DNA of 64,000 bases from a virus (taxonomy: Duplodnaviria > Caudoviricetes). The position numbers were made by a program, and so were the translations under genes. Each line of letters begins with the position of its first letter. The first letter of the stretch is position 1. Positions 1,829-30,816 of the stretch are shown here, piece by piece. The stretch lies in IMG/VR virus record IMGVR_UViG_3300050161_000042, positions 24,494 through 88,493 of that record; one strand, 5' to 3'. The notes under the pieces were generated by a model. It made no database searches. It was not told where the DNA came from and was given only the letters and a program-made list of their open reading frames with translations.

Positions 1829-1837
1829 GTGTATAAT
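1829..1837 (+). promoter_or_regulatory. Putative late promoter motif GTGTATAAT
   Basis: Exact 9-mer right after the capsid terminator, ~30 nt upstream of the 1870 start. Recurs at other gene junctions. Confidence 0.65.
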
Positions 1838-2347: not shown

Positions 2348-5300
2348 ATGACACAAAAAACAAAAGCAGAACTAGTTAACAGTATCAACACGGATATTGT
2401 TTCAAACAGCGAGAAAAGGGTTACACCAGAAGACATTAGGAGAAACATGATCGATATAGTCGATTCTATTTCTATATTGTCTACTGATGAGTATATCGTT
2501 TCTGCTAATATTTCTACGCCTATAACTAGAAATACCAGAGTTGGTATTGAAGCTCTAGATAAAGCTGGAGTTGTTCCTGGTTATAATAGTAATGATAATA
2601 CCGCTGGTGGTTTTCATGCCCTATATGCAAACTACAATGGTGATGGTAATTCTGCTTGGGGTTCTTATGCCCTTGGTTGTAACATCTATGGCGAAGAAAA
2701 TACTGCCATTGGATGGTATACTCTTTCGGTAAATCAAGATGGTGATAAGAATGTCGCCCTTGGTTCTCATGCCCTTAAGAATCTAAAACATGGTAATAAC
2801 AATATAGGTATTGGCTCATATGCCGGATACTATATTGGTGAAAGTGATAACTTTAAATTCTTCTTAGGTTCCCATGACCTAACGCCGCAAGAAACATGTG
2901 ATAATCCATCAGGTAGTGGAATTACTCCACTTATGTATGGTGATCTTCTAAATAACGTTCTTGTTATTGGTTATACTCAACTTCATAACGAAGGAAAGCT
3001 ACAGGTTAATGGATCTGTTACTCCAGCGAGAATGATTAGTGAGGTTTCAGAGCCAGGAAATCTTGGTAGTACAAACTATCCCTGGAATAAAGTATATCTA
3101 AGAGAAATCAACAGCGATTTGCCCTATGTATCTGTTAATAACAACCTGATCCCAACAGAAGATGGTGTGTTTACTCTGGGCGATCAAACTCATAGATGGA
3201 ATACTGCCTATATCAACAATATTGTTGTTAACGGGTCTGCTGCTATCAATGACTTACAATACAATCAAATAACAGAATCACAGTATCTTAATAGAACACT
3301 CTATCTAGCATCTAGTGGAGTAAACTCTATGAGTAGTGCTCCACTTCCTTATTTAACAGATGAAGGTATTGATGGTGGAGGTGTTGTTATTCAATCTTCT
3401 GGAGTTAGTTACAGAAGAAACTATTCAATGCTCTATAGAGCACCTAATCTAACTTGGACATATGCTAATACAGCTTTTGCTAAATCAAGTTGGGAATCTA
3501 ACATCAGCTTTGTTGTACAACCAGACTGTTTTATAAAGACAGACAGACTGATTGGTAGAAGCAAACTTCTCATCAGTAATGATACACCCACAAGAAACGG
3601 TTTCACTGTTGATGACCATATAGTAATTGGTAAAGAAAGTCTTAGAGATGAATACTACGGTTGGGAATTTGGTGGTCAGTTTAACCACATAGTAGATAGC
3701 GGAGTTTCAATATACTCTCAAAACGTATTTGCCAAGGGTTCTGGTATATCTATTGAGAGCAATGAGCTATCTAGATACGATGGAACTTTAGATGAAATAT
3801 ATGGATTCTCTTCGACGTATGATGATAAGAACGGAAAAATCAAGAAAAGATTTATTGGATATGCTGGCAGTCCAAGCGGAACTTGTTCATTTGCAATTGA
3901 TGCCCTAAATGGTAAAGCTGGTTTCTCTAATAGAAATATAGACTTTGATCCAATTACTACTTTCAATATCTTCGGAAGTGGAAATTCAGTATTAAGAAAC
4001 TCATCCGTAAATAAAGCCTCGATACAGCTTTCTGTTGATGATAATAACTTAGTAAAGGGATTAGATATTTCTCACTCGGCGGCGGATAACAAAACGAGGG
4101 TTAGTATCTATAGGGCAGCTTCTCTATATGAAGTGTTTAACTTCGCAGAAAGTGGATTTGCCCACAATACTCCTGTATCTATATTAGAAACAAGCGGTAC
4201 AGTAGTAGCACAAGAAGGTTACGGTACTCTTATCGTAAGACCTAACTCAAGCCCAACTAGATCACAATCTATCTTCTTACAAGATGATGAAGGTAGAGAG
4301 TTTGATCTTCTAGCAGATGGTGGAGACATCTTTGGTGATGATTTCGTATACCATGATGCAAAAAGAAATACATTACTAGGATATTTTGATACAGATACAA
4401 AGGAAAAGATTTATGCAAGCGGTGGATATGAAAATACAGCCATTGGTCACGAAGCTCTTGATGGTTTGGTTACTGGTAGCGGCAATATTGCTTTGGGTTA
4501 CAGATCAGGATATGGAATTAAGTCAGGAAAGAACAATGTTCTAATTGGACATTCTCTTGCTACTACAGACTTATCTAATGCCCTACTTATTGGTAATGGA
4601 ACTAATGTAATAGTTTATGGGGAAATTCCCACAAGTTCTGGTGCTGGATTCTTTGGCGTTGATGAAAAGTTTGAAATCACTAAGAAAGATGCAACCGACA
4701 AGGTTGAGATAGTACAAGAAAATCGTGATACTATCATCAGAAAGGTTAGTAAGGGTAAAAATCTACAGACAGAAATTGTTGATGAACTTGGCGGATTTAT
4801 GGGAAGCAAACCCACATCTAGCCTATTCTTTGATTTTGTAGGTACTACGACACATAGATTGCTTGAGCTTAATGCTTCTGGTAATTTAAATTCTTCATAT
4901 GTTTTTACAAATACAAGACCATATGCAACACTTAAGGGCGATTTGAATCTATACGGCGATCTTAGATTCCCAGATGGAAGTGCTATTACATCAGCTAGCG
5001 GATTACAGATAACCGCCGGTACTGGTATTGCTATAAATTCTATTTCGGGCGTTAAAGAGATCTCGTTTAGTATTAGCAATATTCCAACCTATGGTGGTCC
5101 TATAGCTAGTGTTGATTCTAATCTAGTAGTAGAAACAAGCGGTGTTGTTAAGAGATGCCCAGTATCTCAACTGATGCAGTATGTTAATCATACTAATCCA
5201 CAAATGTACTTTAACTGTCCAGGCGGATATAACTTAGTACTATCTAATAACTCAGCTATCTATCATAATCAAAATTGCAATACAATATTTGGTGGTAATG

Positions 5301-6088
5301 AAGCTGGCGATGATGCGGAAGGATTCACTAATAGCGTTGTATTGGGTACGCAAGCTGGACAAGAAGCTTACTTTAATAATTCTTCGCTAACTATAGATAC
5401 TGCCGCAGTATTCATTGGATACAATGCTGGTAGAAAATCTAGAAATGCTGATAACTCAATCTTTATTGGACCTTCTGCTGGTCAACATTCTGTAAATACA
5501 GATAATTCTATTTTCATCGGTAACTCTGCTGGAGAAAGTTCTAAGTCTTCTAAATCTATTTCGATTGGTGATAATACCCTTGAAACAGTAGAGGGAGAAA
5601 ACAATATAGAAATAGTTGGCAACAGAGAAGACTTTAATAGAATTCTTGGCGGAAGAATAGACCACAAGATGAGTCTTGGTGCCGTTGTTGCTGCCGATAC
5701 ATGTGTTGGTAGAGTATCTGTTGGTGGTGCTGCTAGAGTATTCCCAACAGCCTCTGTAGAATCATCATCTAAGTTTGGTGATAATGCTGTTCCTGTTCAC
5801 AAGTGGTTTAATGCTGCTGGTGATTTAGTAGCATATTTAGATCAACAGGGCAATATGGTTCTTAAGGGAGCCGTAATGACATCATCTTATATGAACGAAT
5901 CAAATCTTGTTCCTGGGGTTATGCCTACCGGATTACCATGTGGAAATCAGAATATATCTGGTAACACACCAACTGTTGTTCTACCAAATACTGGTGGAGA
6001 CAATGGAGATAATGGTAGCGGTGGAAATACTGATCTACCTCCTAGCGGATACATGTTAGGTTACACTCCAATCTACAATGAAATATAG
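2348..6088 (+). CDS. Large virion fibre/adhesin-like protein with Gly-containing beta-roll repeats
   Basis: 1246 aa with three clusters of ~14-aa N.A.G..AL/AG repeats resembling YadA-head beta-rolls. N-terminus is similar to that of the 9871 ORF. Confidence 0.55.
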   Translation: MTQKTKAELVNSINTDIVSNSEKRVTPEDIRRNMIDIVDSISILSTDEYIVSANISTPITRNTRVGIEALDKAGVVPGYNSNDNTAGGFHALYANYNGDGNSAWGSYALGCNIYGEENTAIGWYTLSVNQDGDKNVALGSHALKNLKHGNNNIGIGSYAGYYIGESDNFKFFLGSHDLTPQETCDNPSGSGITPLMYGDLLNNVLVIGYTQLHNEGKLQVNGSVTPARMISEVSEPGNLGSTNYPWNKVYLREINSDLPYVSVNNNLIPTEDGVFTLGDQTHRWNTAYINNIVVNGSAAINDLQYNQITESQYLNRTLYLASSGVNSMSSAPLPYLTDEGIDGGGVVIQSSGVSYRRNYSMLYRAPNLTWTYANTAFAKSSWESNISFVVQPDCFIKTDRLIGRSKLLISNDTPTRNGFTVDDHIVIGKESLRDEYYGWEFGGQFNHIVDSGVSIYSQNVFAKGSGISIESNELSRYDGTLDEIYGFSSTYDDKNGKIKKRFIGYAGSPSGTCSFAIDALNGKAGFSNRNIDFDPITTFNIFGSGNSVLRNSSVNKASIQLSVDDNNLVKGLDISHSAADNKTRVSIYRAASLYEVFNFAESGFAHNTPVSILETSGTVVAQEGYGTLIVRPNSSPTRSQSIFLQDDEGREFDLLADGGDIFGDDFVYHDAKRNTLLGYFDTDTKEKIYASGGYENTAIGHEALDGLVTGSGNIALGYRSGYGIKSGKNNVLIGHSLATTDLSNALLIGNGTNVIVYGEIPTSSGAGFFGVDEKFEITKKDATDKVEIVQENRDTIIRKVSKGKNLQTEIVDELGGFMGSKPTSSLFFDFVGTTTHRLLELNASGNLNSSYVFTNTRPYATLKGDLNLYGDLRFPDGSAITSASGLQITAGTGIAINSISGVKEISFSISNIPTYGGPIASVDSNLVVETSGVVKRCPVSQLMQYVNHTNPQMYFNCPGGYNLVLSNNSAIYHNQNCNTIFGGNEAGDDAEGFTNSVVLGTQAGQEAYFNNSSLTIDTAAVFIGYNAGRKSRNADNSIFIGPSAGQHSVNTDNSIFIGNSAGESSKSSKSISIGDNTLETVEGENNIEIVGNREDFNRILGGRIDHKMSLGAVVAADTCVGRVSVGGAARVFPTASVESSSKFGDNAVPVHKWFNAAGDLVAYLDQQGNMVLKGAVMTSSYMNESNLVPGVMPTGLPCGNQNISGNTPTVVLPNTGGDNGDNGSGGNTDLPPSGYMLGYTPIYNEI

Positions 6089-6096
6089 GAAATAAT

Positions 6097-7584
6097 ATGG
6101 GAAGCTTTACAAAAACAATCAATCCTACAAACTTTAATCTTGGTAATGGTCTAATATCATCTACTAATATTTTTCAACCATTGAATTACAATACAAATTT
6201 TAATGGAACTTTCGTTGATAGCGTTGATTATGGTTTGATATTAGGATTAAGTACTTATGCATATTCTGGAACAAAACCGATCCATCTTGATCTTTATGGG
6301 GTTTCTTATTTTAATCAAGACTATTTAGCTGGACCTTATGTAAATAATATAGCACCAGTAAATCATCAGTCAGCAAGTAGTCCATTTGCAAGGTTTAAAT
6401 TAACACCAGGAGATCTATATTTAGTTGGTGGAATGTATGTTCCTTGCAACGGAAGCATTTCTTTAACAAATGTAAATAACTACTTTGTAGAGAAAACAAT
6501 ATCTATAGCTTCTAGTCCTCAGTCTAAACTAAAGATGTTTTTAAACTTTAGTACTGTTAGTACTCAGTCTATTTATTATAGACCTTCTACAAACTTTTTC
6601 AATCTTTATGCCGGTACTTATTGGCAGGGAACAAACTTGACAATAAATGACCCAGATAGTCAACCGACTTCTAAGGTTTGTTTTAGAATTCTAGCTAATA
6701 ATGTTGTTGTATTTGATCTTAGAAATAACTTCGTTGGCAACATTGATGTCACTATTCCTCCTGGCACAACAAGTATTAAATTTGAAACATATGATGAAGC
6801 GTTTCCGACAGGAACTCCGACTAACTACTTCAAGAATGCAGATTACTATGTAATTTACAATAATCTTAGAATTAACGTAGAAGGACAACCAAGTAGACCA
6901 ATTGGTAATGATACTAGATTGGGAACTGGTTATTCATATCTAGAGGCTATTAGATCATCTTCACTTAGCGTTACAGATGTTGATAATAATGGATATCACG
7001 ATATTATTCTTGGTCAGTCTGAATCAGATAGACCAGTTAGTTATTATGTAGTAGGTGATGACTGGAAAGATCCAAACTTTAGACCATTGAATACAAATAG
7101 AAATGTTTGTCTAGAGTTTCCTAATATAGATTTTAGTGATATTGATGAAGATGAAAGAATTGAATTAGTTCTAGATGTTATTGATATTAATACAGACGAA
7201 GCAGAAGAACAATATGACCACCTAGGAATTTCAAAACCTATTACTAGAGAATTCTACAAGTTTGGAGATAATGCTACTGATTCGCCTCCAAATACTAGAA
7301 GGGCTAGAATGAATTGCTCTGTAGCTAGAGCAGATTTTGTTGATACAGTTGTTGCAATATCTACTGGTCCTAGTAATCATACTGTTGCCCCTAAAGTTGC
7401 TATAAAGGGCGGTATACTTATCTATGATATCACAGATGCAGTAAAAGACTCTATAATAGCTGGTAGACAGAAGATAGTTGTGTGGTTAACATACGATGAA
7501 GGAACTAGGGATAAGTATGTTACCTTTAGAATAGGTAATACAGAACAAAACAAACCAAGGATAAGATTCAAGCCTAAACCATGA
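6097..7584 (+). CDS. Hypothetical, probably virion-associated beta-rich protein
   Basis: 495-aa ORF containing DVDNNGYHDIILG (FG-GAP/VCBS-type Ca-binding loop-like) and DIDEDERIELVL. Confidence 0.45.
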   Translation: MGSFTKTINPTNFNLGNGLISSTNIFQPLNYNTNFNGTFVDSVDYGLILGLSTYAYSGTKPIHLDLYGVSYFNQDYLAGPYVNNIAPVNHQSASSPFARFKLTPGDLYLVGGMYVPCNGSISLTNVNNYFVEKTISIASSPQSKLKMFLNFSTVSTQSIYYRPSTNFFNLYAGTYWQGTNLTINDPDSQPTSKVCFRILANNVVVFDLRNNFVGNIDVTIPPGTTSIKFETYDEAFPTGTPTNYFKNADYYVIYNNLRINVEGQPSRPIGNDTRLGTGYSYLEAIRSSSLSVTDVDNNGYHDIILGQSESDRPVSYYVVGDDWKDPNFRPLNTNRNVCLEFPNIDFSDIDEDERIELVLDVIDINTDEAEEQYDHLGISKPITREFYKFGDNATDSPPNTRRARMNCSVARADFVDTVVAISTGPSNHTVAPKVAIKGGILIYDITDAVKDSIIAGRQKIVVWLTYDEGTRDKYVTFRIGNTEQNKPRIRFKPKP

Positions 7585-8261
7585 AAGTAGCGGTAATAAG
7601 TAGATACAAAGAAGATTGTAGTTGGGTTAAACATTTGGAAGTAGATCATGTGTTTATTTACAACAAGGGAAAAAAGATAGAAATAAAATTCGGCCCTAAT
7701 GTATCTATTGAAGACTTGCCTAATACCGGAAGAGAAGCTCATACTTGGGCTTATCACTTTTTAAAGAATTATGATGATCTAGCTGATAATACATTTTTAC
7801 TACAGGGCGATCCATTCGAACACTCTGGGGATTTGTATAGCAGACTAAAACATGATTACATCGAGCCAACCTCGTTGACCAGTCAGTATAAGTCCAATTG
7901 GCCCCCTCCAGACTTTAAAAGAAAAGAAAAGACAATTTATCCATTCGGACACACGGTAAGACTCGGACATATTTCCTGCTATAGCGGTGGGTTCATTGAC
8001 GACACAAGAGCTTGGTTTAAGGAAAGATGGGAATTCATATTCGAGGGCGATGCCCCTAAAGAATTTTACTATCCATATGGTGCGATGTGGGCTGTTCCTA
8101 GAAAAACAGTTCTAATAAGAGACAAGAGTTTCTGGTTTATACTAGAGATGCTTTTAAGAAACTTCAAAACAGCAAAAATGTCGGATACAATAATTGACCC
8201 CTGGGCGATGGAAGCTCTATGGCCCGCAGTATTTGATTCACAGTATAGGACTAAGTTTTAA
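7581..8261 (+). CDS. DUF3431-family protein (putative glycosyltransferase-like)
   Basis: Signature motifs VISRYKEDCSW, IYNKG, LPNTGREAHT..YH...NYDDL.D.TFLLQGDPFEH. ATGA overlap with the upstream gene. Confidence 0.75.
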   Translation: MKVAVISRYKEDCSWVKHLEVDHVFIYNKGKKIEIKFGPNVSIEDLPNTGREAHTWAYHFLKNYDDLADNTFLLQGDPFEHSGDLYSRLKHDYIEPTSLTSQYKSNWPPPDFKRKEKTIYPFGHTVRLGHISCYSGGFIDDTRAWFKERWEFIFEGDAPKEFYYPYGAMWAVPRKTVLIRDKSFWFILEMLLRNFKTAKMSDTIIDPWAMEALWPAVFDSQYRTKF

Positions 8262-9334
8262 TGTACGATTACATGGTTGTTGGTTGCGGATTATTTGGTT
8301 CTGTGTTTTCGAATATAGTTGCAGATAAAGGCAAAAAAGTACTACTGATTGATAAAAGGACTCACATAGCCGGTAATTGCTACACTGAGCAGATCGAGGG
8401 AATCGAGGTTCATAAATACGGCCCACATATATTCCATACAAATTCCAAAGATATTTGGGACTATGTAAACCGATTTGCAGAATTCAATAACTTTGTACTT
8501 AATACGAAAGCTAAGTATGATGACAAGATATACTCACTTCCTATTAACATGAATACATTCTATGAACTTTGGGGAGTTACTGAGCCTAAAGAAGCTAGAA
8601 AGATACTTGAAACTTCAAAAGTTAAAATAGACAACCCAAAGAACCTAGAAGAATATGCACTGTCTCAACTTGGTACAGAAATATACGATAAGTTCTTCTA
8701 TGGCTACACCAAGAAACAATGGGGAACTGATCCTAAGAATTTGCCCGCAAGTATAATCAAAAGATTGCCTATCAGATATACTTACGATAACAACTATTTT
8801 AATGATAAATACCAGGGCATTCCTGTCGGTGGTTATACAAGAATGGTTGGTAACATGATAGATCACCCTAACATAGAAATAAAGCTAGGAGCCGAGTTTA
8901 ACTGGGAAGGTTTGGCTAGGAATATTGTTTATACTGGCGGGATCGATACTCTGTTTAATTATCAATTTGGAGAGTTAGAGTATAGATCACTTAGATTTGA
9001 GCATTCAATAAAAGATGGAGATATTCAGGGATGTGCAGTATTAAACCATACAGAAGCTTATATTCCCTATACTAGGACAATTGAGCACAAGCATTTTGAG
9101 AAGAAGATTACAGATAAAAGTGTAATTACTAGAGAATACCCACAGTCATGGGATAAAGACAAAGAAGCCTATTATCCTGTTTCAAACGAATCTAGTAGTA
9201 ACTTATACAATAGATATTTAGAGCTTTCAAAAGGTCTAGATAACATGTTTATAGGTGGAAGATTGGGTTCTTATAAATATTGGGATATGGATCAAACAAT
9301 TGGTTCTTCAATGAAGTTGGCTAAAAGTGTATAA
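8261..9334 (+). CDS. glf: UDP-galactopyranose mutase
   Basis: FAD-binding VVGCGLFG, IDKRTHIAGNCY, HKYGPHIFHT, GYTKKQWG, YQGIP..GYT, YTR..EHKHF, YYP and GRLGSYKYWDMDQ: the full Glf motif set in 357 aa. Confidence 0.97.
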   Translation: MYDYMVVGCGLFGSVFSNIVADKGKKVLLIDKRTHIAGNCYTEQIEGIEVHKYGPHIFHTNSKDIWDYVNRFAEFNNFVLNTKAKYDDKIYSLPINMNTFYELWGVTEPKEARKILETSKVKIDNPKNLEEYALSQLGTEIYDKFFYGYTKKQWGTDPKNLPASIIKRLPIRYTYDNNYFNDKYQGIPVGGYTRMVGNMIDHPNIEIKLGAEFNWEGLARNIVYTGGIDTLFNYQFGELEYRSLRFEHSIKDGDIQGCAVLNHTEAYIPYTRTIEHKHFEKKITDKSVITREYPQSWDKDKEAYYPVSNESSSNLYNRYLELSKGLDNMFIGGRLGSYKYWDMDQTIGSSMKLAKSV

Positions 9335-9336
9335 AT
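9327..9336 (+). promoter_or_regulatory. Variant late promoter motif GTGTATAAAT
   Basis: Overlaps the glf stop codon, ~20 nt upstream of the 9357 start. One mismatch to GTGTATAAT. Confidence 0.45.
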
Positions 9337-9356
9337 TCTTATAGAGGTAACAAAAA

Positions 9357-9860
9357 ATGAGTTGGAAATTGAAAGTTGTTCCCGTAATAAGAACACTCGT
9401 AAGCGATCTAGAATATGCCCAGTATGACGATGACAGAATTCTCATGAATTTTATGTTTGCGGCTAATTTTGTCTCTTTTGATGTTAAGAAGTGGAGTTAT
9501 GAGATAGATACCTCCGCTGTAGAAATTACTCCAGATCCATCCGATGACCAAAATTTTATTACATTATCATGTCTCAAATGTGCCTGTATGATGTTGAATA
9601 GTGAGCTTAAAACAAAGCTTGCTACAACGGGAAGAAAGGTAACCATGAAAGACGGTCCATCTGAAATAACTATGGACAGAAGCTCAGAGCTAGCTTCATT
9701 AAAAGAATTCGCTAAAAGTGCTTGTGACAAATACGAAGAAGCCCTATTTCAGTTTAATGCCGGTAACTCAATTGGTATATCGATAACTGGACCACAAACA
9801 TGGGGAGTAGCAGACACACAAGGTTCAACAACATACCCAGAAGAAAGAAATGTATTCTAA
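9357..9860 (+). CDS. Putative head-tail adaptor/connector protein
   Basis: 167 aa, largely helical, with a hairpin segment (KVTMKDGPSEITMD). Position and size fit adaptor proteins. GAGG RBS. Confidence 0.45.
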   Translation: MSWKLKVVPVIRTLVSDLEYAQYDDDRILMNFMFAANFVSFDVKKWSYEIDTSAVEITPDPSDDQNFITLSCLKCACMMLNSELKTKLATTGRKVTMKDGPSEITMDRSSELASLKEFAKSACDKYEEALFQFNAGNSIGISITGPQTWGVADTQGSTTYPEERNVF

Positions 9861-9870
9861 GGAATAAAAA

Positions 9871-10806
9871 ATGCCAACACTAAGAACAAAAACACAACTG
9901 ATTAACAAAGCAAATATTGACCTAGCGGATAATAATGCAGGTTCTATTTCTGCCCAAGATATTAGAGAAAACATTACTGACTTTTGTTACTCAACAAACC
10001 TTCTTGTTGGAAGTGGAGACCACGATGTAGAGTTTCCATTTGTTAACAACGTTAGGGCATCTAAGATTACCGGAAATGGTTTCTTTATTGCCGAGTCTGG
10101 GATTAACTTTCCAAATAGCCCAGGTGCCGTAAATCAATACGAAGCTTATCCTGGTGCTGCAAATATAGAACACGATCAACTAAAGAATAGACACGTTAGC
10201 ATTGATGCTCACAGACAGTATCTTGCGGTTAACGGAACAAGACCTATGGAAGAAAATCTTCCTATGGGTGCCAACTGGATTAATTCATCTGGGGCAAGTT
10301 TCGATAACAGAGGTCTAAAGTTTGAATACACACCAAGCGGAGATAACATCAAAGTTGGTGCTGGAAGCCAATTTGTATTTTCAGATAACTCTAAGATGGC
10401 TAGTGCTAGAGGCATAGCCAAAGCTTGGATGATCTTTGATGGTAGCGGAACTGGTACATATGGTACTCCAGTTGTAAAAGCTTACCACAATATTGAATCA
10501 GTTCAATACTTAGATCCAGGTAAATACAAAGTGATATTACCATCTGGGGCAGTTAAGAATGCAAACTGCGTAGCTATTGGTACTTCTAACTCAAGAACAA
10601 CAGCGGCAAGCCAAGAAGATTTTGATAGAAATACTGTTGGTATTACACAGAGAAGCATCGATGGTCAGGGTAGACTTAACCTAACATTCCTAGTTCTTAA
10701 TGATGCTGGACAATATGTCGATGCTGAACTTAATGAACTGATTGTTTATGGAAATGACGCTGGCGAAGGTGCTCAAACATCTCCACTTATAATTCCTAAA
10801 TCATAA
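9871..10806 (+). CDS. Virion fibre-type protein
   Basis: C-terminal AKAWMIFDG...VKAYHNIESV...GKYKV.L matches a common fibre C-terminal domain. N-terminus is shared with the 2348 ORF. Confidence 0.55.
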   Translation: MPTLRTKTQLINKANIDLADNNAGSISAQDIRENITDFCYSTNLLVGSGDHDVEFPFVNNVRASKITGNGFFIAESGINFPNSPGAVNQYEAYPGAANIEHDQLKNRHVSIDAHRQYLAVNGTRPMEENLPMGANWINSSGASFDNRGLKFEYTPSGDNIKVGAGSQFVFSDNSKMASARGIAKAWMIFDGSGTGTYGTPVVKAYHNIESVQYLDPGKYKVILPSGAVKNANCVAIGTSNSRTTAASQEDFDRNTVGITQRSIDGQGRLNLTFLVLNDAGQYVDAELNELIVYGNDAGEGAQTSPLIIPKS

Positions 10807-11488: not shown

Positions 11489-12910
11489 ATGACAATAAGA
11501 ATTAGAAGAAGAACTAGCGGTGGATCAGGTGCCCCATCGTCATTGGAAAATGCTGAGTTAGCATACAACGAAGTAGATAATATTCTTTACTACGGTAAGG
11601 GAACTGGTGGTGCTGGTGGTAGTGCTACTACTATCGAAGCTATTGCTGGTGCTGGTTTCGTTGTATCACTAACTGGTGCTCAATCGATTGATGGCGTTAA
11701 GACATTTACATCTAGTCCAGTTGGACCAACACCTACTGGTGGTGATAGCTCTACAAAGTTAGCTACTACAGCGTTCGTTGCTGCTGCCGTTACTGCTGGA
11801 ACAATTGCAGACGGTGATAAGGGTGATATTGTTGTCTCTGGTACTGGATCGATATTTACTATTGATACCAACGTAGTATCTAACACTAAGCTTGCCCAGA
11901 TGGGTGCTAATACTCTTAAGGGTAATAATACTGGCTCTACAGCTAATGCTGCTGACTTAAGCGTTGCCCAAGTTAAGACAATGTTAGCATTAAACAATGT
12001 TGATAATACTTCAGATGCTACAAAGTTTACAAATACAGCTTTGACTGGTGTTCCAACAGCCGCTACTGCGGCTGCTGACACTAATACAACTCAAATTGCT
12101 ACTACGGCATTTGTTATTGGACAAGCTTCTGCTTTAACTCCGGTTGTAAACGGAACTGCTGCTATTGGTACTTCTCTTAAATTTGCTAGAGCAGACCACG
12201 TTCACGGTACAGATACTACAAGAGCACCTCTTGCTAGCCCAACATTTACTGGTCTAGTAACTGCTCCTGCTGGTTCAACATCACAAGCTGGTGGTTTAAA
12301 GCTTACTTCTGGTGCCCTAAAGACTACACCAATTGCTGGTGATTCTGGAAGTTTGGAATACGCTGGTTCTACAATGAGCATTATTAATAGCTCTGGTACT
12401 AGAAAAGTATTTGCTTACACAGATGACGTATACTCTGGAACGTTAACAAGCGGTCAAATCACAACCGCCCTAACATTCACACCATACAATGCGACTAATC
12501 CTGCCGGTTATATCACTTCATCGGCCTTAAGTACATATGCTCCTTTAGCAAGCCCTGCATTAACTGGTACTCCAACAGCACCAAACGTTACTGATGGTGA
12601 TAGCTCAACTAAAATTGCTAATACTGCATTCGTATCAACAGCCGTAGCTAACTTAGTTGCTTCTGCTCCTGGTACGCTTGATACTCTTAATGAACTAGCT
12701 TTAGCTTTAGGAAATGACCCTAACTTTGCTACAACACTTACTACATCATTAAGCGGTAAAGCTGACTTAGTTCTATCTAATCTTAGCAATACTGGTACTG
12801 CCAGAACTAACTTAGGTCTAGGTTCTATTGCTACACAAAATGCTAATGCCGTTGCTTTAACTGGTGGAACTATAAGTGCCGCTGTTGTTATTGACGGAGG
12901 TACGTTCTAG
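11489..12910 (+). CDS. Tail/collar fibre protein
   Basis: N-terminal IRIRR...AELAYNEVDNILY anchor. P2-H-like segments TQIATTAFV and APGTLDTLNELA.ALGNDPNFA. ADHVH motif. Ends IDGGTF. Confidence 0.75.
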   Translation: MTIRIRRRTSGGSGAPSSLENAELAYNEVDNILYYGKGTGGAGGSATTIEAIAGAGFVVSLTGAQSIDGVKTFTSSPVGPTPTGGDSSTKLATTAFVAAAVTAGTIADGDKGDIVVSGTGSIFTIDTNVVSNTKLAQMGANTLKGNNTGSTANAADLSVAQVKTMLALNNVDNTSDATKFTNTALTGVPTAATAAADTNTTQIATTAFVIGQASALTPVVNGTAAIGTSLKFARADHVHGTDTTRAPLASPTFTGLVTAPAGSTSQAGGLKLTSGALKTTPIAGDSGSLEYAGSTMSIINSSGTRKVFAYTDDVYSGTLTSGQITTALTFTPYNATNPAGYITSSALSTYAPLASPALTGTPTAPNVTDGDSSTKIANTAFVSTAVANLVASAPGTLDTLNELALALGNDPNFATTLTTSLSGKADLVLSNLSNTGTARTNLGLGSIATQNANAVALTGGTISAAVVIDGGTF

Positions 12911-13344
12911 TGCCTATCCAGATTCTAAGATCTTCTACTACTGGTGTTGTTCCTAATCCCTCTACTTTAGTAGTAGGGGAATTGGCGGTTAATACTGCTG
13001 ATGCTAAGCTATGGACAAAACACACAAATGGAGCATTAGTAGACCTCACAGCAGGAGGTGGTGGTGGAACCACTGTATATTCGACTACAATAGAGGTAGA
13101 CTTTGGTACAGAAGAAGGTGGAGTTGCATCAGTAAGCGTTTCAGCTACATGGGCAACTTCAACATCAAAAATTACAATAACACCATCTGGAATAGCTACA
13201 ACAGATCATGATCCAGAAGATTATGCCCTAGAGGGTATTTTTGCTATTCCTATAGATATAGTTGATGGTGTTGGTTTTACATTATTAGCAGGATGTAGAG
13301 AATCAACATTCGGCAAATACAAATTTAATATATTAGGAGTTTAA
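12910..13344 (+). CDS. Short fibre-associated protein (GTG start)
   Basis: N-terminus IQILRSSTT...LVVGELAVNTADAKLW is homologous to the 11489 anchor. TAGTG overlap with the previous stop. Confidence 0.6.
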   Translation: MPIQILRSSTTGVVPNPSTLVVGELAVNTADAKLWTKHTNGALVDLTAGGGGGTTVYSTTIEVDFGTEEGGVASVSVSATWATSTSKITITPSGIATTDHDPEDYALEGIFAIPIDIVDGVGFTLLAGCRESTFGKYKFNILGV

Positions 13345-13348
13345 AAGG

Positions 13349-14764
13349 ATGTCAGTTATAATTAAGAGCGGTGCAAGTAGTGATGTTTTAACAGTTGATC
13401 CTACAAGCAAGGCAGCTAGAGTTACACTTTATGATGCACAGGGTAATCCATTAACATATGCAGACGGTGATTCGCCAACAATCGCAAGAGGTATCTTACA
13501 TCTTGGAGTAAATGATAAAAACGTTTTAGCTGCAAGAATGGATAGACTTGGAAATACAGGTACAACACTTCACACTTTGTTACTAAGTGAATCTTTTGAA
13601 GCAACTACTACAAATCCACAAAGATGGCTTATTACAAATTCCACTATGGCAGCAACTCAAGCTACTATTAGCGGATTTTTATTCAATTCTGCTGCAATAA
13701 CAACTATCAATAGCGGTTATAGCTTAAAGTCTACTATGCTTTTTGCCAAGATGCAAAAAACCCCATTACAGATGAAGTTTAGGGCGAGATTAGCTCATCA
13801 AAATAATTCAGTAATTGAAATTGGTTTTGGTGATGCTTCTACATTTAATGGTGCCAATACAACTGGTGCTTATTGGCAGGTTACTTCATCTGGAGTTTTG
13901 CAGCCTGTTGTAACATTTAACGGTGTAGATCAAACCGGAACTCCAGTAACTTTCTCTACAACAAACTATTATACTTTTGACGTTATAGTTGATGATAATT
14001 CTGCTACATTTATATGCCAAGATACAAGTACTGGAAATTTAGTATCTAAACAAACAATAAATTTAGCATTAAGTGGACAAAGATTATTTAGTGCTACTCA
14101 GTTAGGGATAATTGCTAGATTATATAATACAGCGGTTGCTCCTGCGACTGCTCCTCAATTAATGCTAACAGACGTATATGTTTTAGCTTTAGATAACGCA
14201 GAAACAAAACCTTGGCCTATTGTTAATGCGTGTAATCAAAAAGGAACTCCAACTCATCCGTTCACTGGTGCTCAATTAACTAACTTTGCTAACTCTACCT
14301 CTCCTGCTTCCGCGACATTATCTAATACAGCCGCTGGTTATACTACTCTTGGTGGATTATGGCAATTTGCTGCTGTTGCTGGTGCTGTGACTGATTATGC
14401 TCTATTTGGATTTACAGTTCCTTTAAATTCTAATTTTGTAATTACTGGTATTGATATTGAAGCATGGAATACGGTTGTAGCTGTTGCTACTACTCCCACT
14501 CTATTGATGTGGGGTCTTGCTGTTGGTTCTACTGCTGTTTCACTAGCTACCGTTACTGTAAATAGAATAGCTTTAGGGTCTCAAAGCTTTCCAATTGGTG
14601 CTGTTCCTGGTGCTAATGCTCAAAGAATTTCAAAACAGTTTACAACACCTTTGGTTTGTCCATCCGGTAGATTCGTACATGTTATTCTAAGAATGCCAGT
14701 AGCTACTGCTACCGCTACTGAAATATTTCAAGGTCTAGTTAATATTGAAGGATACTTCGAATAA
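13349..14764 (+). CDS. Virion beta-sandwich (lectin-like) protein, putative
   Basis: 471 aa, Thr/Ala-rich with beta-strand patterning, inside the fibre island. Confidence 0.45.
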   Translation: MSVIIKSGASSDVLTVDPTSKAARVTLYDAQGNPLTYADGDSPTIARGILHLGVNDKNVLAARMDRLGNTGTTLHTLLLSESFEATTTNPQRWLITNSTMAATQATISGFLFNSAAITTINSGYSLKSTMLFAKMQKTPLQMKFRARLAHQNNSVIEIGFGDASTFNGANTTGAYWQVTSSGVLQPVVTFNGVDQTGTPVTFSTTNYYTFDVIVDDNSATFICQDTSTGNLVSKQTINLALSGQRLFSATQLGIIARLYNTAVAPATAPQLMLTDVYVLALDNAETKPWPIVNACNQKGTPTHPFTGAQLTNFANSTSPASATLSNTAAGYTTLGGLWQFAAVAGAVTDYALFGFTVPLNSNFVITGIDIEAWNTVVAVATTPTLLMWGLAVGSTAVSLATVTVNRIALGSQSFPIGAVPGANAQRISKQFTTPLVCPSGRFVHVILRMPVATATATEIFQGLVNIEGYFE

Positions 14765-14774
14765 GGAGATAAGA

Positions 14775-15104
14775 ATGTTTGATATACATAATTTAGAATC
14801 AGAAAATGAAGCAAATAGAATTTTGAGAACAGGAAATGAAATGTTCAAATATTTGCTTGATTTTCATAAAGAACAAAAAAATAGTTTTTGGTTAAATAAC
14901 GGTATATCAAGAAGTAAAGAAGAATTACAAGCAATTTGTAATGTTATGGACTCAGTGAGGACTGGTCAGTCGGCAGAAGCATTTAATTTTGGTGCAATGA
15001 TTCTTAGTATTCTTTTAACAATAGATCCAGCCTGTTTACAACCAGAAGAATATACATCTCCTTATCCCTTTACTATTGTAAACGGTTGTGTGTTATTTAC
15101 ATAA
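14775..15104 (+). CDS. Hypothetical protein (possible fibre chaperone)
   Basis: ORF track starts at 14745, but AAGGAG precedes the in-frame ATG at 14775. Confidence 0.5.
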   Translation: MFDIHNLESENEANRILRTGNEMFKYLLDFHKEQKNSFWLNNGISRSKEELQAICNVMDSVRTGQSAEAFNFGAMILSILLTIDPACLQPEEYTSPYPFTIVNGCVLFT

Positions 15105-15126
15105 AGCTTAATTAAGAGTAATCCTA

Positions 15127-17283
15127 ATGTTTAAAATCAACGATAGAATAAAAGAAAAAACATACAGTGTTGGTTCTGGGAATTTAGACTTCTCAGGGCC
15201 GACTCCTGCATATAGTGCATTCTCTTCTGTTTATAACAGTGGAGATACCTTCTTCTATTGTATTACGAATGACGTTGATTACGAAATTGGTATGGGTAGA
15301 TATAGCCCCAACAGATTAGAAAGAACTCAGGTATTTAAGTCTAGTAAACCATCAAACGCCATAGTAAATTGGCCTGTTGGTTTAAAAGAAGTTTATGTGA
15401 CATATCCTGCTGAAAATTCTGTTTATCAAGTTAATAATATTGATTCTCAGAATGCACCACTATCTAAGAACTTTACATACTGGTCTAGTGCAAACTCGGT
15501 TTCGGACGTTGAAGGTTTAAGCTTTGATAGCGGTAGAGTTGTTTCTTCCCTAGAGTTTTCTTTCTCTAATGTAATCAGATTTAGTGGATATGCCCTAACT
15601 CAAAACTCTCCATTTCAAAAAGATGAGCTTATTACATCTACCTTGATCGATGAAGTTATCTATCAGTCTGGTGAAGTAAATCAATATAAAGGATTTAAGA
15701 AACAAAGATCAGGTACGGTTCTAGCTGGACCTTTAGATAATTGTGGTTCTGGAACATGCCCTAGTGGCTATCCAATGTTCAGACCTTTATCGGAAGAAGA
15801 TATTCCTGTATTAGATGCAGAGAATATATCCTATACTCCAGCAAATCCTGGTAACTGGTCTTCTGTTCCTACCAACGTAGAAGTTGCCCTAGACCTATTA
15901 GCTTTAGGTGGAAGCGGAAGTGGCCCTACTAGTATAAACTGGACTAACATAACAAATAAGCCCTTAACTTTTAATCCTACTTTACCAATTCCTGCAACTG
16001 GTATTACTGGACTTGGTGCCCTACTTACATTAGGCGAAACATCAACTACAGCATATAGGGGAGACAGAGGTAAGATAGCTTACGATCACTCGCAAACTTC
16101 GGGTAATCCTCATAATCTTGTTAAAGCAGACATAGGGCTTTCTAATGTAGATAATACAACAGACCTTAACAAGCCTATTTCTACGCTGACACAGACTGCA
16201 TTAAACGGCAAATCTAACGTTGGACACACGCACACGTTTTCAGAAGTCTCTGGCAGTATTCCAGCACATACGCATACATTCTCAGATATTACGGGTAACA
16301 TTCCTATATCTAAGTTTAATGCTGGAAGTGGTGCTAGTATAACTTCAGTATGGAGAGGTGATGGTACTTGGGCTGAATTTGACTTTAATCCAACTCTAAA
16401 TAATTTAGGATATGGAATGATAGTTGGAAGAGAAAACACGACAAGCCCTGGAACAGGAAGCCTTTCTAACGTAGCTATTATTGGTAGAAATAACGCTTTC
16501 ACAAGAGATGGTTCGGTTACAAGTTCTTGCTCTAATATTTTTGGTTCTGGTAATCAACATATATTGGCATCAACTTCCTATTCATCTGGTAAAAATACAT
16601 TAGTTGGAAACAACAATTATTCATATGGAAACAATCAAATATTTGGAAGTGACAATAGTGTAACTGGTGTTGGAAATACATCAATTGGGCAAAATGTCTC
16701 TATATCGGCAGACGCTGGTATTCCTTATGCTAATAGCAATACAGTTGTCGGAAATAGTATAACTCATGTTGGTCAAGGTTGCTCTATATTTGGAAATTCA
16801 ATTAATGCTAATACAAGTTTAGGTACATATGGAAGTTTACTTACTGGTCAATATAATCTACAAGCTGTAATATTTGGACAAAATTGTACATTAAGTGCTG
16901 AGGAAATAGCTCCAACAGGAAGTCCATTTGGATTGTCATTTTTTGGAGAACCATCAGTGCTAATTGGTCATGGTATAAATCACCAGTATAGTAGTATAAT
17001 TGAAATAGGAAATATGACAGATGTTACAGAAAAGGCAGTAATAAGAATTGGATATGGTGGATGGAAACAAGTCTCTTCTCAGTGGAATAGAACAAAACCC
17101 TTTGCTATGTTTCCAATATCAGATTTAGGTACTATACTTTCTAGTTCAAATATACATTCAAGTGTCCCAACAGAAAATATACCAAGCGGAATGATGACAT
17201 TCAGAAGATCTGGGGCTTCCATTTTCATAGACATAAACATAAGCGGAACAACAAAAACGCTATCTCTCGGAACAGCGACATAG
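15127..17283 (+). CDS. Tail fibre protein
   Basis: N-terminal DRIKE...YEIG.G...EVYVTYPAE domain, GLSNVDNT.D.NKP.ST.TQ.ALN repeat, HTH metal-binding motifs, and C-terminal Gly-Asn beta-roll repeats. Confidence 0.7.
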   Translation: MFKINDRIKEKTYSVGSGNLDFSGPTPAYSAFSSVYNSGDTFFYCITNDVDYEIGMGRYSPNRLERTQVFKSSKPSNAIVNWPVGLKEVYVTYPAENSVYQVNNIDSQNAPLSKNFTYWSSANSVSDVEGLSFDSGRVVSSLEFSFSNVIRFSGYALTQNSPFQKDELITSTLIDEVIYQSGEVNQYKGFKKQRSGTVLAGPLDNCGSGTCPSGYPMFRPLSEEDIPVLDAENISYTPANPGNWSSVPTNVEVALDLLALGGSGSGPTSINWTNITNKPLTFNPTLPIPATGITGLGALLTLGETSTTAYRGDRGKIAYDHSQTSGNPHNLVKADIGLSNVDNTTDLNKPISTLTQTALNGKSNVGHTHTFSEVSGSIPAHTHTFSDITGNIPISKFNAGSGASITSVWRGDGTWAEFDFNPTLNNLGYGMIVGRENTTSPGTGSLSNVAIIGRNNAFTRDGSVTSSCSNIFGSGNQHILASTSYSSGKNTLVGNNNYSYGNNQIFGSDNSVTGVGNTSIGQNVSISADAGIPYANSNTVVGNSITHVGQGCSIFGNSINANTSLGTYGSLLTGQYNLQAVIFGQNCTLSAEEIAPTGSPFGLSFFGEPSVLIGHGINHQYSSIIEIGNMTDVTEKAVIRIGYGGWKQVSSQWNRTKPFAMFPISDLGTILSSSNIHSSVPTENIPSGMMTFRRSGASIFIDINISGTTKTLSLGTAT

Positions 17284-17290
17284 CAATATA

Positions 17291-17299
17291 GTGTATAAT
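17291..17299 (+). promoter_or_regulatory. Putative late promoter motif GTGTATAAT
   Basis: Exact 9-mer in the 48-nt gap before the 17332 ORF. Confidence 0.65.
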
Positions 17300-17331
17300 T
17301 TATTGAAGATTTAATTCAAAAGGAACAAAAA

Positions 17332-17640
17332 ATGGCAGTAGAACAAAAAACAGTAACGTTGCAATTTCCACTAGAATATTGGAAAAATGTGACAGAAGCT
17401 TTTGCAGAAAGCCCATATGTAAACATCATGGTCCCAAGACCAATGGTAGAGATGGGGCAAGACCCTAAACCAGTAGACAAAGAAGAAATAACAATTGATT
17501 CAATTCTGGACTTCATTAGGGTAAAAACCAAAGAATACGTGAAAAGAAAAAGAACAGAAGAATTGTTAAGAGAACTAGAAGCTGATACAGAATTAGAGTC
17601 TAACCAGAATACAAATGCCGTACAAGTAAAAACAGTTTAA
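17332..17640 (+). CDS. Hypothetical protein
   Basis: 102 aa, AAGGA RBS, preceded by the promoter motif. Charged, helical C-terminus. Confidence 0.6.
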   Translation: MAVEQKTVTLQFPLEYWKNVTEAFAESPYVNIMVPRPMVEMGQDPKPVDKEEITIDSILDFIRVKTKEYVKRKRTEELLRELEADTELESNQNTNAVQVKTV

Positions 17641-17662
17641 AAGTTAAATATGGAGGTATTCT

Positions 17663-18478
17663 GTGTTTAAGATACATAACAGAGTAAAAGAAAAGACCTC
17701 TACTATCGGAACTGGACCATTATCACTCTTCGGCTCAAGCCCTGGGTTTATTACCTTTTCCTCGTTTTACGACGATAACGATCAGCTTTTTTATTGTACA
17801 ATTAATGGGTTTGATTTTGAAATTGGTGTAGGTACTTACTTTAATAACTCAATTACAAGAAATAGAGTACTTAGTAGCTCGAATGCTAATCAGTTAGTGC
17901 ATTGGCCTCCTGGCGACAAAGAAATTTATGTCACATATCCAGCAGAAAATGCTGTATACCAACCAGAGGGGATTAATAGTGCGACTGCACCAGAACCAGA
18001 AGCATTAGCTTACTGGATAGACAAAAATACCATATCAAGTATTGCCCACACATACTATCGTGATAACACAATTGTATCAGAGGCAGATTTTAACATAGGT
18101 GTTCTTACTAACAAGTTTGAACATATAGACCCAGTTACAGCTAACATACCAGTTGGTTCTGCTAGACTGATTAAGGGTTTAGACGGAAAGATTCAAGTTT
18201 GGGTTAATGACAATGGCAACATAAGACCTATGGACGGTGGTTCTGGGTCTGTCTCATTTAATCTAATATTTAACGAGACACCAACTGGCGTAATGAATGG
18301 TGTAAACAGAACTTTTAATTCAGCTTTTAACTTTGCGAGTGCTACGCTGTCTGTTCATTTGAACGGTCTAAGACAAAGACTTACATCTGACTACCAAATA
18401 GTAAATAGCAACACAATTATGTTAAACGTTGCCCCAAGTTCAACAGAAAATTTATCAATCGATTATCAAAAATTATAG
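17663..18478 (+). CDS. Short fibre/adaptor protein (GTG start)
   Basis: GGAGG RBS. N-terminal ~130 aa paralogous to the 15127 ORF; C-terminal ~70 aa paralogous to the end of the 18490 ORF. Confidence 0.65.
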   Translation: MFKIHNRVKEKTSTIGTGPLSLFGSSPGFITFSSFYDDNDQLFYCTINGFDFEIGVGTYFNNSITRNRVLSSSNANQLVHWPPGDKEIYVTYPAENAVYQPEGINSATAPEPEALAYWIDKNTISSIAHTYYRDNTIVSEADFNIGVLTNKFEHIDPVTANIPVGSARLIKGLDGKIQVWVNDNGNIRPMDGGSGSVSFNLIFNETPTGVMNGVNRTFNSAFNFASATLSVHLNGLRQRLTSDYQIVNSNTIMLNVAPSSTENLSIDYQKL

Positions 18479-18489
18479 AGAATTAAAAA

Positions 18490-20760: not shown

Positions 20761-20763
20761 TAG

Positions 20764-23253: not shown

Positions 23254-23957
23254 TGGGATCATTTACAGGATCATCAATTACTGGAGTTTCTAGTATTTAT
23301 TTTTGTGATATGCCTAATATAGATGGCTTAGTGCTTAAATTAGATGCTAGTAGTATTTCGGCAAATGATGGAGACGCATTAACTGTTTGGAAAGATGTTA
23401 GTGGTAATGCTTATAATGCTACACCAGTTACTGGTTCGCCTGTTTACAAAACAAATATATTGAATGGTAAACCAATAGTAAGATTTACAGCCTCAAATAC
23501 AGATGGTATGAGATCTATTGTTCCCGTTTCAAGTACATATACATTATTTTCTGTGGCTAGGATGAGAGACTTATCAAGCCCAGGAAGAATCATAGCTTCT
23601 ATCTATCCAGAAAAAGCTAACTACTTAGCTGGATGGTGGGGAGGATACGAAAGCACTTTTTATGCAGAAGGTTGGGTAAAAAGTGGTACTGTCTCAGTTA
23701 CAACTAACTGGCATCAATATACTACAAAGGGCGATGGTACTACAAGTACGTTTTATGAATCTGGTACATCACTAGCTTCAAATACTGCTGGAGTAAGTAG
23801 CCCAAATGGTGGTATTGCCCTATCAGGTTATGCTCTTGCTTCAAGTACAGAAATGTCAAATTGTGATATAGCGGAAGTAATCCTTTATAATAGGGTACTT
23901 TCAGATACAGAAAGAGGATCAATAGAATCTTACTTATTAAGTAAATACGGACTATAA
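23253..23957 (+). CDS. Concanavalin A-like/LamG domain protein
   Basis: GLVLKLDAS...W.DVSGN...P.Y..NILNG.PIVRF and IAEVILYNRVLSD.ER..IE.YL..KYG, a typical LamG-like virion lectin. Confidence 0.75.
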   Translation: MGSFTGSSITGVSSIYFCDMPNIDGLVLKLDASSISANDGDALTVWKDVSGNAYNATPVTGSPVYKTNILNGKPIVRFTASNTDGMRSIVPVSSTYTLFSVARMRDLSSPGRIIASIYPEKANYLAGWWGGYESTFYAEGWVKSGTVSVTTNWHQYTTKGDGTTSTFYESGTSLASNTAGVSSPNGGIALSGYALASSTEMSNCDIAEVILYNRVLSDTERGSIESYLLSKYGL

Positions 23958-23958
23958 C

Positions 23959-27279: not shown

Positions 27280-27965
27280 TGAAACTATTAGTAGTAACTC
27301 CGTACCATAGAAATATCTGCGAAGAAACAGAAAACCTTTTAAAATATTTAGAAACTAAGTACACTGTCTGGAGGGCAAGCAATTGTTCGGCTATAGATAT
27401 GTGTAGGTCAATGATTGCCAGTTTCGCCCTAGATAATCACTATGATGCAATTCTCTGGATAGATAGTGATATAGAAGTTTCAAATGAAGATATAGACGAA
27501 TTTATCTTGAACTATGAAAGCCTAGGAAGATATAGTTTCTTCTTTGCTCCATATTTAAGAAAAGATGCAAACTTTGCCGCTCTCACACTAACAGAAAACG
27601 GATACAAACATCAATATTTAAAAAATTATAGATATTGTGATACAGAGGGATGTGGATTTGGGTGTACATTATTAGGTGTAGATGTATTGAATACAATCAA
27701 AGATACATACAAAATGAAAAGATGTATGTCTGCTGATTACACTTGTTTCCTACCTTTCTTTATTCCTATGGTTATAGAGAAGAATATTGATGGAGTAGAA
27801 GTACCAGGGACATATTTTACCGAAGACTACGCTTTTTGTCATAGGGCAAAATCCTGCGGAATAAATATTACTACTGACAGAAAACCAAAGGTGATACATA
27901 TTGGAGAGACCAAACTTGTCTTACCAAAAATTGACGATTTTTATGGATTACAAAGTGAAGTATGA
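27279..27965 (+). CDS. Glycosyltransferase, GT-A/GT2-like
   Basis: LLVVTP N-terminal strand, R..I...L...YD.ILWIDSDI (DxD), GFGCTLL, EDYAFCHRAK..G..I..D....HIG. Start 27279 (TAATG overlap) preferred over 27270. Confidence 0.8.
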   Translation: MKLLVVTPYHRNICEETENLLKYLETKYTVWRASNCSAIDMCRSMIASFALDNHYDAILWIDSDIEVSNEDIDEFILNYESLGRYSFFFAPYLRKDANFAALTLTENGYKHQYLKNYRYCDTEGCGFGCTLLGVDVLNTIKDTYKMKRCMSADYTCFLPFFIPMVIEKNIDGVEVPGTYFTEDYAFCHRAKSCGINITTDRKPKVIHIGETKLVLPKIDDFYGLQSEV

Positions 27966-30808: not shown

Positions 30809-30816
30809 CGTTTTTT

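Follow-up and report, generated by a model that had tools for sequence, protein, structure and literature searches.

Why should a phage carry a gene for UDP-galactopyranose mutase (glf) in the middle of its fibre genes? The question is raised by a stretch of 64,000 nucleotides (the window) that corresponds to bases 24494-88493 of an 88,493-bp IMG/VR virus record (G000 hereafter; CheckV completeness 53%). In the window, glf directly follows a gene of the DUF3431 family, and these two genes form the cassette considered here. Mammals lack galactofuranose (Galf), and in fungi, mycobacteria, and parasites this sugar is a target for drugs and diagnostics. To our knowledge, several Galf transferases are still unidentified. 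In the favoured reading, Glf would convert host UDP-galactopyranose (UDP-Galp) to UDP-galactofuranose (UDP-Galf), and the translationally coupled DUF3431 protein would be a soluble transferase of the GT-A fold using this donor. Because the pair lies in a fibre-gene unit, both enzymes would be made alongside the fibre proteins, at the site of virion assembly in the cytoplasm. The acceptor would then most likely be a fibre or decoration protein of the same unit, and the product a Galf-decorated particle. The entire chain, from Glf through DUF3431 to a virion acceptor, is plausible but in our view somewhat short of an even chance; its individual links differ in strength.

Comparison with known enzymes predicts that glf encodes a bona fide, intact UDP-galactopyranose mutase (UGM), which would make the donor UDP-Galf. 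Over residues 1-355 the protein scores 386 bits against the UDP-Galp mutase equivalog TIGR00031 (cut-off 303.75). It also matches NAD_binding_8 (5.8e-18), and its full length aligns with both C. jejuni 4MO2 (E 1.9e-124) and the E. coli enzyme Glf 1I8T (E 6.6e-121). The motifs VVGCGLFG (the N-terminal GxGxxG), IIKRLPIRY, YTRTIEHKHF, YYP, and GGRLGSYKYWDM are conserved relative to these two proteins; the first would bind FAD and the Arg- and Tyr-bearing motifs the substrate, as in UGM structures. At two positions occupied by Arg in C. jejuni UNGM, the phage enzyme agrees with E. coli Glf in having His and Lys, which, in the light of work on UNGM, would suggest UDP-Gal as the substrate in preference to UDP-GalNAc. 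glf is present in 90 of 50,697 GenBank phage records, and the homolog in Rhizobium phage RL38J1 is about 43% identical. The original prediction had described the two open reading frames (ORFs) as DUF3431 and an intact glf in translational coupling, and this description stands: PF11913, PF03275, and TIGR00031 identify them, and both junctions were read. The DUF3431 start codon, ATG at 7581, shares bases with the TGA that ends the preceding 495-aa ORF (ATGA), and the TAA at 8259-8261 overlaps the glf start at 8261-8263 (TAATG).

The DUF3431 protein is predicted to adopt the GT-A glycosyltransferase fold. It scores 41.6 bits against PF11913 (gathering cut-off 25), and three homologs (P0001-P0003) are 79-92% identical. 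An exhaustive search of 50%-identity representatives finds 2808 relatives at E <= 1e-3. A glycosyltransferase-like fold had been set beforehand as a test of the original prediction, and the AlphaFold model (AF2, 47-sequence alignment) is of the GT-A type, with pLDDT 94.8 and pTM 0.91. The best Foldseek matches of the model in the PDB are GT6 alpha-1,3-galactosyltransferase, GlfT2, GNPTAB, GtrB, and LgtC (probability 0.9-1.0, TM only about 0.4). The probability is 1.0 for GT6 and the galactofuranosyltransferase GlfT2, and 0.96-1.0 across the top eight matches. In VIA-align the top 20 rows are, with few exceptions, GT-A transferases (Z 9.3-7.9, about 155-170 residues aligned), and nucleotidyltransferases rank below them. 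The best match is 2BO4 (Z 9.3, 170 residues, rmsd 4.0), and partners are MGS, ArnC, ColGalT1, WrtF, GlcAT-P, TarS, SpsA, and DPMS. The conserved residues of the family follow strands beta1-beta4 (RYxEDxxW, YNKG, NxGREAH, and QGxPxxH), with E211xxW214 in addition, and in the model they sit where GT-A enzymes hold the nucleotide sugar. Some family members have an N-terminal hydrophobic segment, like membrane-anchored transferases. Long DUF3431 proteins are uninformative, since their fusion partners are ankyrin repeats, DUF6171, or nothing recognisable. The DUF3431 profile finds no match among PDB sequences. In a full-text literature search, DUF3431 is named in only four papers; the three that were listed concern other subjects by their titles and abstracts, and no searchable paper describes a link between DUF3431 and glf.

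Among the structural matches, GlfT2 (GT2; PDB 4FIX, 9DTP) is the natural point of comparison. It shares with the DUF3431 protein the GT-A fold (VIA-align Z 7.8) and the proposed donor UDP-Galf. Unlike GlfT2, DUF3431 is a minimal single domain of 226 aa, without DXD, extra domains, or membrane association, and the two have no detectable sequence similarity. Taking the predicted fold together with the linkage to glf, DUF3431 is probably a Galf or Galf-1-phosphate transferase.

The linkage itself is found well beyond G000. The pattern scan used a 12-sequence DUF3431 alignment, the 47-sequence one being too diverse. It found 202 IMG/VR relatives, from which 79 loci (including giant-virus contigs) were kept; 26 loci in GTDB genomes bring the total to 105. 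In 41 of these 105 loci, DUF3431 has a glf homolog no more than 8 kb away. Collapsing duplicates at 80% identity leaves 49 viral clusters, of which 21 have such a glf, and 26 bacterial loci, of which 9 do. As a background, none of 80 loci of related phages has glf. The two genes are less than 100 nt apart in 17 pairs and less than 1.5 kb apart in 35; they occur in either order, on the same or opposite strands, with varied spacers and sometimes with genes between. DUF3431 also occurs on giant-virus contigs, some of them with glf. In a mirror-tree comparison the pairwise identities of DUF3431 and Glf show no co-divergence (Spearman -0.13, with a local-identity measure that is noisy). This lack of correlation suggests that the association formed repeatedly, and a single mobile DUF3431-glf cassette is disfavoured. 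Repeated association is the expectation under functional coupling. Six loci, L182, L186, and L178 (Verrucomicrobiota) and L087, L151, and L154 (viral), have DUF3431 inside proteins of 421-634 aa, with a short Glf-like gene directly after it (about 30-35% identity), and they may represent a distinct subfamily of the pair.

What surrounds these pairs bears on one alternative, already named in the original prediction, namely that the phage remodels the host envelope. Here Galf would be added to, or UDP-Gal diverted from, a lipid-linked glycan of the host (lipopolysaccharide, capsule, or teichoic acid), which would mask receptors and thereby spare progeny from debris and block superinfection. Glycan enzymes predominate around the pairs in the 20 viral loci analysed: among 150 ORFs scanned there, the families matched most often are GT2 (9), GT1/4 (5), GT25 (4), FkbM methyltransferases (4), GT11 (3), GT6 (2), and GT47 (2); other methyltransferases, epimerases, and Gmd are also present. 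Bacterial DUF3431 loci have GT2, GT25, and methyltransferase neighbours. For the bacterial DUF3431 and glf genes this is a setting typical of surface-glycan loci, and the viral pairs lie in similar islands. Moreover, the acceptors of the bacterial Galf transferases characterised so far are lipid-linked glycans. In G000, however, the pair occupies a place in the fibre operon behind a putative virion-gene promoter class, which would imply expression shortly before lysis, late for envelope turnover. The unit has no membrane segment and no flippase or polymerase partner, and the same slot is stably kept across a deep divergence while neighbouring slot genes turn over. The phage also appears to be lytic and is large, unlike seroconverting prophages. 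Envelope remodelling thus seems unlikely for this cassette.

The slot in which the cassette sits (window 6088-9357, with equivalents in L003-L085) is hypervariable. It starts at the 3' end of a 1246-aa gene, and in different relatives it holds unrelated proteins of 180-880 aa; in L031, for example, these are a 747-aa protein and a 265-aa protein with an F5/8-type-C carbohydrate-binding domain. In L038 the 1246-aa homolog is directly followed by homologs of the 167-aa and 311-aa proteins that lie 3' of glf in the window. The 495-aa, DUF3431, and glf genes are therefore a slot filling of 3.25 kb. The same slot and order are kept in three other records (G001-G003). One of them, the sister phage G001, is a 175,823-bp record rated 100% complete. 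It contains locus L083, which shares its arrangement with L084 and L085: Gp80-like, 1669-aa, an unrelated 332-337-aa protein overlapping DUF3431, glf, orphans, and the 167-aa and 311-aa homologs. The proteins adjoining the cassette in G001 and L085 belong to no Pfam family, and the 495-aa and 332-aa proteins upstream of DUF3431 have no detectable homology to each other.

Between G000 and G001 the DUF3431 proteins are 40% and the Glf proteins 53.5% identical. The two genomes are syntenic over the whole module at 31-72% identity, with 38-72% for the proteins flanking the cassette. On a tree of the 503-aa head-module protein, which is encoded beside the portal gene, they are sisters on long branches (SH-like support 99). 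The simplest history suggested by these sequences is one acquisition of the cassette followed by long retention in the subclade. The place of glf among relatives had been predicted to be non-random, and it is indeed the same slot in the same fibre operon of a deeply diverged sister.

Hypervariability of the slot 3' of the 1246-aa gene also fits a different explanation, in which the pair has no dedicated target. It would be a moron passenger in a recombination hot-spot, or DUF3431 would be some other nucleotide-sugar-binding or -hydrolysing protein or a stealth-type Galf-1-phosphate transferase. The missing DXD of DUF3431, the nucleotidyltransferases and the phosphotransferases GNPTAB and CpsY among its fold matches, and the occurrence of Glf in only about half of the DUF3431-bearing bacteria are all compatible with this. 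Yet both genes are intact and have been kept in place at identities like those of their neighbours, which argues for selection. In addition, the linkage to glf arose repeatedly and independently, and the expected active site of DUF3431 has nearly invariant polar residues. A pair without a dedicated target is improbable, and the least probable of the alternatives considered here.

When the cassette is expressed can be approached through the motif GTGTATAAT. Five exact copies are found in the window (1829, 17291, 30817, 51402, and 62190) and another at genome 21083; the counts are 7 in G000 and 25 in G001. Orthologous copies precede the portal, Gp80-like, 396-aa, and 232-aa genes; a further shared site is within the 3646-aa gene, at its end. 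Because these sites are kept in G001, whose proteins are only 31-72% identical, the comparison supports GTGTATAAT as a putative clade-specific promoter class for virion genes. The class is perhaps read with a phage sigma-like protein. A sigma-like protein with a weak Sigma70_r2 match is encoded at L002:6640-7164.

No exact copy of GTGTATAAT lies between 1829 and the cassette. The late-promoter motif that had been placed straight after glf is reduced to GTGTATAAA, a variant with one mismatch. It lacks the final T and is nearer to the start codon than the exact copies are, and its class is not enriched in the window (15 one-mismatch matches observed vs. 24.8 expected). In G001 an exact copy follows after glf and one 104-aa ORF. 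With no copy from 1829 to the cassette and only the variant after glf, the pair is thus probably the 3' end of the Gp80 transcription unit. This unit would run from the GTGTATAAT promoter through the Gp80-type fibre monomer, the 1246-aa protein, a variable protein, and DUF3431 to Glf. The claim that the cassette lies among structural genes agrees with what surrounds it: capsid and Gp80-type fibre genes upstream, fibre-like ORFs downstream. Operon structure and the conserved putative promoter class likewise argue for the predicted co-expression with virion genes.

Several points weigh against a Galf-decorated particle. The cassette is absent from all 22 relatives in which the slot is visible and is therefore dispensable for the virion plan, and elsewhere the usual setting of DUF3431-glf pairs is a glycan island rather than a structural operon. 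Any Glf is found in only 13 of 25 DUF3431-bearing bacterial genomes, compared with 4 of 14 controls. This is a modest co-occurrence, and the wider family therefore probably uses other donors too. With respect to the enzyme itself, a Z of about 9 only moderately exceeds the background of 7-8 stated for VIA-align. No conserved DXD follows beta4; the window protein has QGDPFEH there, of which Q75, G76, and H81 are conserved whereas D77 is replaced by N, H, R, or S in homologs. Since some GT-A families have no DXD, this loss is compatible with transferase activity. As for the acceptor, we infer a virion protein, and the fibre ORFs of the window have no mucin-like acceptor tracts. The fibres had been described as very Thr/Ser-rich, which overstates their composition: they contain 21-29% S+T (60-aa maximum 0.43) and are moderately Thr-rich. 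Finally, a published proposal ties phage Glf to DNA modification (PMC13326640).

A precedent for the Galf-decorated particle is the O-glycosylation of mycobacteriophage virions, as recounted in PMC12619734 (citing Freeman et al. 2023). In that account, phage-encoded cytoplasmic glycosyltransferases, whose genes are dispensable and patchy among relatives as they are here, decorate the phage's own structural proteins. Unlike the mycobacteriophage case, in which glycans are part of the account, the present one consists of genes alone. It would involve Galf with a phage-made donor and DUF3431 in place of the transferase families named there, and its genes lie inside a fibre operon. A C-terminal acceptor tail is not identified here.

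The original prediction also pointed to a GT-A glycosyltransferase closing the fibre island, and the ORF at 27270-27965 bears this out. Its product is predicted to be a GT-A transferase: WIDSDI (the DXD) and EDYAFCHRA (the ED(Y/F)) are invariant among homologs, and the AF2 model (pLDDT 73) is best matched in VIA-align by STIV A197 (Z 12.9), followed by BcsA, MGS, and SpsA (Z 12.2-11). Its Atlas look-alikes are viral GT2-like clusters, and its Pfam matches to GT21 and GT2 are below threshold. A homolog on a 162,667-bp contig (P0169) is 92% identical. The gene is absent from G001-G003, and most of the fibre island is also absent from G001; the gene is specific to the enlarged fibre island of G000. 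Because the cassette-bearing sister lacks it, the idea of glf, DUF3431, and this transferase as one three-enzyme system does not hold as a conserved unit.

Phage DNA GT-A enzymes carry an R...DxD...EDY pattern (Pyle et al.), which the 27270 protein shares and DUF3431 does not (no R...DDD...EDY). This leads to an explanation that the original prediction had not raised: Glf would supply UDP-Galf for DNA hypermodification, with DUF3431 or another phage transferase placing Galf on a modified base before packaging as an anti-restriction coat. A donor role of this kind is proposed for the Glf of Rhizobium phage RL38J1, in whose DNA 5-hydroxycytosine bears a glycan that begins with galactose (PMC13326640). 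Modification ahead of packaging would go well with late expression. In G001 a GT-A gene with R...DDD...GED motifs lies beside the thymidylate synthase homolog; elsewhere, neighbourhoods of this kind have been linked to DNA sugar hypermodification. Enzymes that make the acceptor base were sought in the complete G001, G000 being only 53% complete. What is found there speaks against DNA as the target. G001 has a single thymidylate synthase homolog, and its residues are canonical (W80, Y94, L143, C146, H147, D169, and N177). By the criteria of PMC13326640, G001 therefore has neither the 5-hydroxycytosine nor the 5-hydroxymethylcytosine synthase signature. It also has no C5-cytosine methyltransferase and no ParB; a Tet/JBP search was empty, but its control was also silent. 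The ORFs near DUF3431-glf pairs are polysaccharide-type enzymes and not nucleotide metabolism, bacterial DUF3431 adjoins GT2 and methyltransferase genes, and some members of the family as a whole have the N-terminal hydrophobic segment mentioned above. In G000 the pair is in the fibre operon, not near replication or nucleotide genes. DNA as the target is accordingly quite unlikely.

The present cassette resembles the 5-hydroxycytosine pathway of RL38J1 and the Pootjesviridae in one respect, as there too phage Glf is proposed to feed UDP-Galf to phage transferases (PMC13326640). It differs in its partners. In RL38J1 the pathway comprises a D169N thymidylate-synthase-like 5hodCMP synthase together with a nucleotide kinase and DNA transferases (PMC13326640), whereas the sister G001 has only the canonical synthase, and Glf is partnered with DUF3431. 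As a separate observation, an insertion of about 320 aa, possibly an intein or a homing endonuclease, interrupts the thymidylate synthase gene of G001 (L189:1498-3267, L190:1258-2916). Immediately 5' of this gene are the GT-A gene and a 150-aa ORF.

Galf decoration of the particle can also be set beside the glycan machinery of giant and archaeal viruses (PBCV-1, Mimivirus, and STIV A197), in which virus-encoded donor synthesis is likewise combined with minimal GT-A transferases. These systems have chemically defined capsid or fibril glycans; the present one, by contrast, is known from sequence alone. Gmd is present in PBCV-1 as well as in the present phage clade, where it is a core gene. We know of no report of Galf in these viral systems. 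In its broadest form the proposal would make DUF3431 a new family of DXD-less GT-A Galf or Galf-1-phosphate transferases in phages, giant viruses, bacteria, and fungi, which in the present subclade coats fibre proteins with Glf-made Galf. Taken as a whole this is doubtful. If true, it would be the first case of a phage particle decorated with Galf and could help to find the missing fungal Galf transferases. The predicted fold and the repeated, independent linkage to glf give a testable function to a large family (2808 representatives). Outside actinobacteriophages, the cassette is a candidate case of a phage that supplies the sugar for its own decoration, and it comes from an abundant clade of large, uncultured environmental phages. 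It is also a clean case in which to ask what a phage Glf is for: the particle, the DNA, or the host surface.

Table 1. Coordinates of the cassette and neighbouring features in the window
Feature	Position	Strand	Evidence or remark
Major capsid protein, 336 aa	719..1729	+	phmmer vs PDB: 6WKK Gp27 major capsid protein, E 4.3e-6
Exact GTGTATAAT promoter motif	1829..1837	+	32 nt 5' of Gp80-like gene; probable start of unit ending in DUF3431-glf
Gp80-type small fibre monomer, 154 aa	1870..2334	+	First gene of unit; PF23140 Gp80, E 1.1e-28
1246-aa virion protein	2348..6088	+	PHROG virion structural and tail-spike families, residues 57-191
495-aa protein	6097..7584	+	Stop overlaps DUF3431 start; candidate structural/carbohydrate-binding protein, candidate acceptor
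DUF3431 protein, 226 aa	7581..8261	+	GT-A-fold predicted glycosyltransferase; PF11913, E 1.5e-10
Glf, predicted UDP-galactopyranose mutase, 357 aa	8261..9334	+	PF03275 GLF, 2e-75; TIGR00031 equivalog
GTGTATAAA, one-mismatch promoter-like variant	9327..9335	+	Overlaps glf stop; possible weak start of next unit
Conserved 167-aa virion-module protein	9357..9860	+	Downstream slot border; homologs in L038, G001
Conserved 311-aa protein	9871..10806	+	phrog_11355 tail fibre, 1.2e-6
Predicted GT-A transferase with DXD, 231 aa	27270..27965	+	Overlaps end of 1106-aa fibre gene

The features of the cassette and its surroundings are collected in Table 1; the cassette is on the same strand as the virion genes. 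Upstream of the window, in order, are genes for a sigma-like protein, a Gmd-like protein, an ERCC4 nuclease, a ClpP-like prohead protease, the large terminase, a portal-sized protein (685 aa), and the 503-aa protein. The window continues with a 157-aa virion protein, the major capsid protein, a terminator-like hairpin (1762-1788, 3' of the capsid gene), GTGTATAAT, the Gp80-type fibre monomer, the 1246-aa and 495-aa proteins, DUF3431, and Glf. On the other side of glf, the conserved 167-aa and 311-aa proteins are followed by a 16-kb fibre-like island (ORFs from 11489 to 27279), the 27270-27965 gene, and conserved proteins of the neck and tail along with giant proteins. PHROG has no match for the neck and tail genes at 28783-34371 and 39569-40636.

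The major capsid protein is 72% identical in G001 and marks the head module just 5' of the cassette operon. GP4 gp80-like proteins build the chain-like fibres of a podophage (PMC13730344). The 1246-aa protein has tblastn homologs in 52 of 80 related loci, and also in G001, with identities of 27-38% in the clade. The 495-aa protein has no Pfam or PHROG family above threshold and no homolog among the relatives; the ESM Atlas yields a weak CBM96 lead (score 0.85). The 167-aa protein is 47% identical in G001 and 29% identical to the L038 ORF directly 3' of the 1246-aa homolog (E 6e-20). Its earlier label, head-tail adaptor, is rejected, as it has no Pfam, PHROG, or PDB-profile match. The 311-aa protein is 60% identical in G001 and 48% in L037/L038.

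G000 has no close relative among GenBank phages by DNA, DUF3431, or 503-aa protein queries, and its terminase has only distant matches there (about 26-28% identical). IMG/VR scans with DUF3431, the 495-aa protein, or the 311-aa protein as single queries gave no match, nor did two metagenome scans for relatives.

The Gmd-like gene (GDP-mannose 4,6-dehydratase, 404 aa; L002:8395-9609, genome 16394-17608) matches PF16363 in three stretches (2.7e-103) and falls below the TIGR01472 cut-off; it therefore carries an insertion. The gene belongs to the clade core: 33 related loci carry it at 52-57% identity and G001 at 63%, and without exception it lies a few genes ahead of the protease and terminase. 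A partner reductase or transferase for it is not identified.

The 503-aa protein (L002:15211-16722, ending at window 228) was tried as the capsid protein and dropped, the 336-aa protein being the better candidate by its 6WKK match. It is rich in Lys, Glu, and Asp, is encoded between the portal-sized and capsid genes, and may be scaffold-like. No Pfam, PHROG, or GenBank-phage match is found for it. IMG/VR contains at least 413 relatives of it, and the protein can usefully serve as a marker of this abundant clade of environmental phages.

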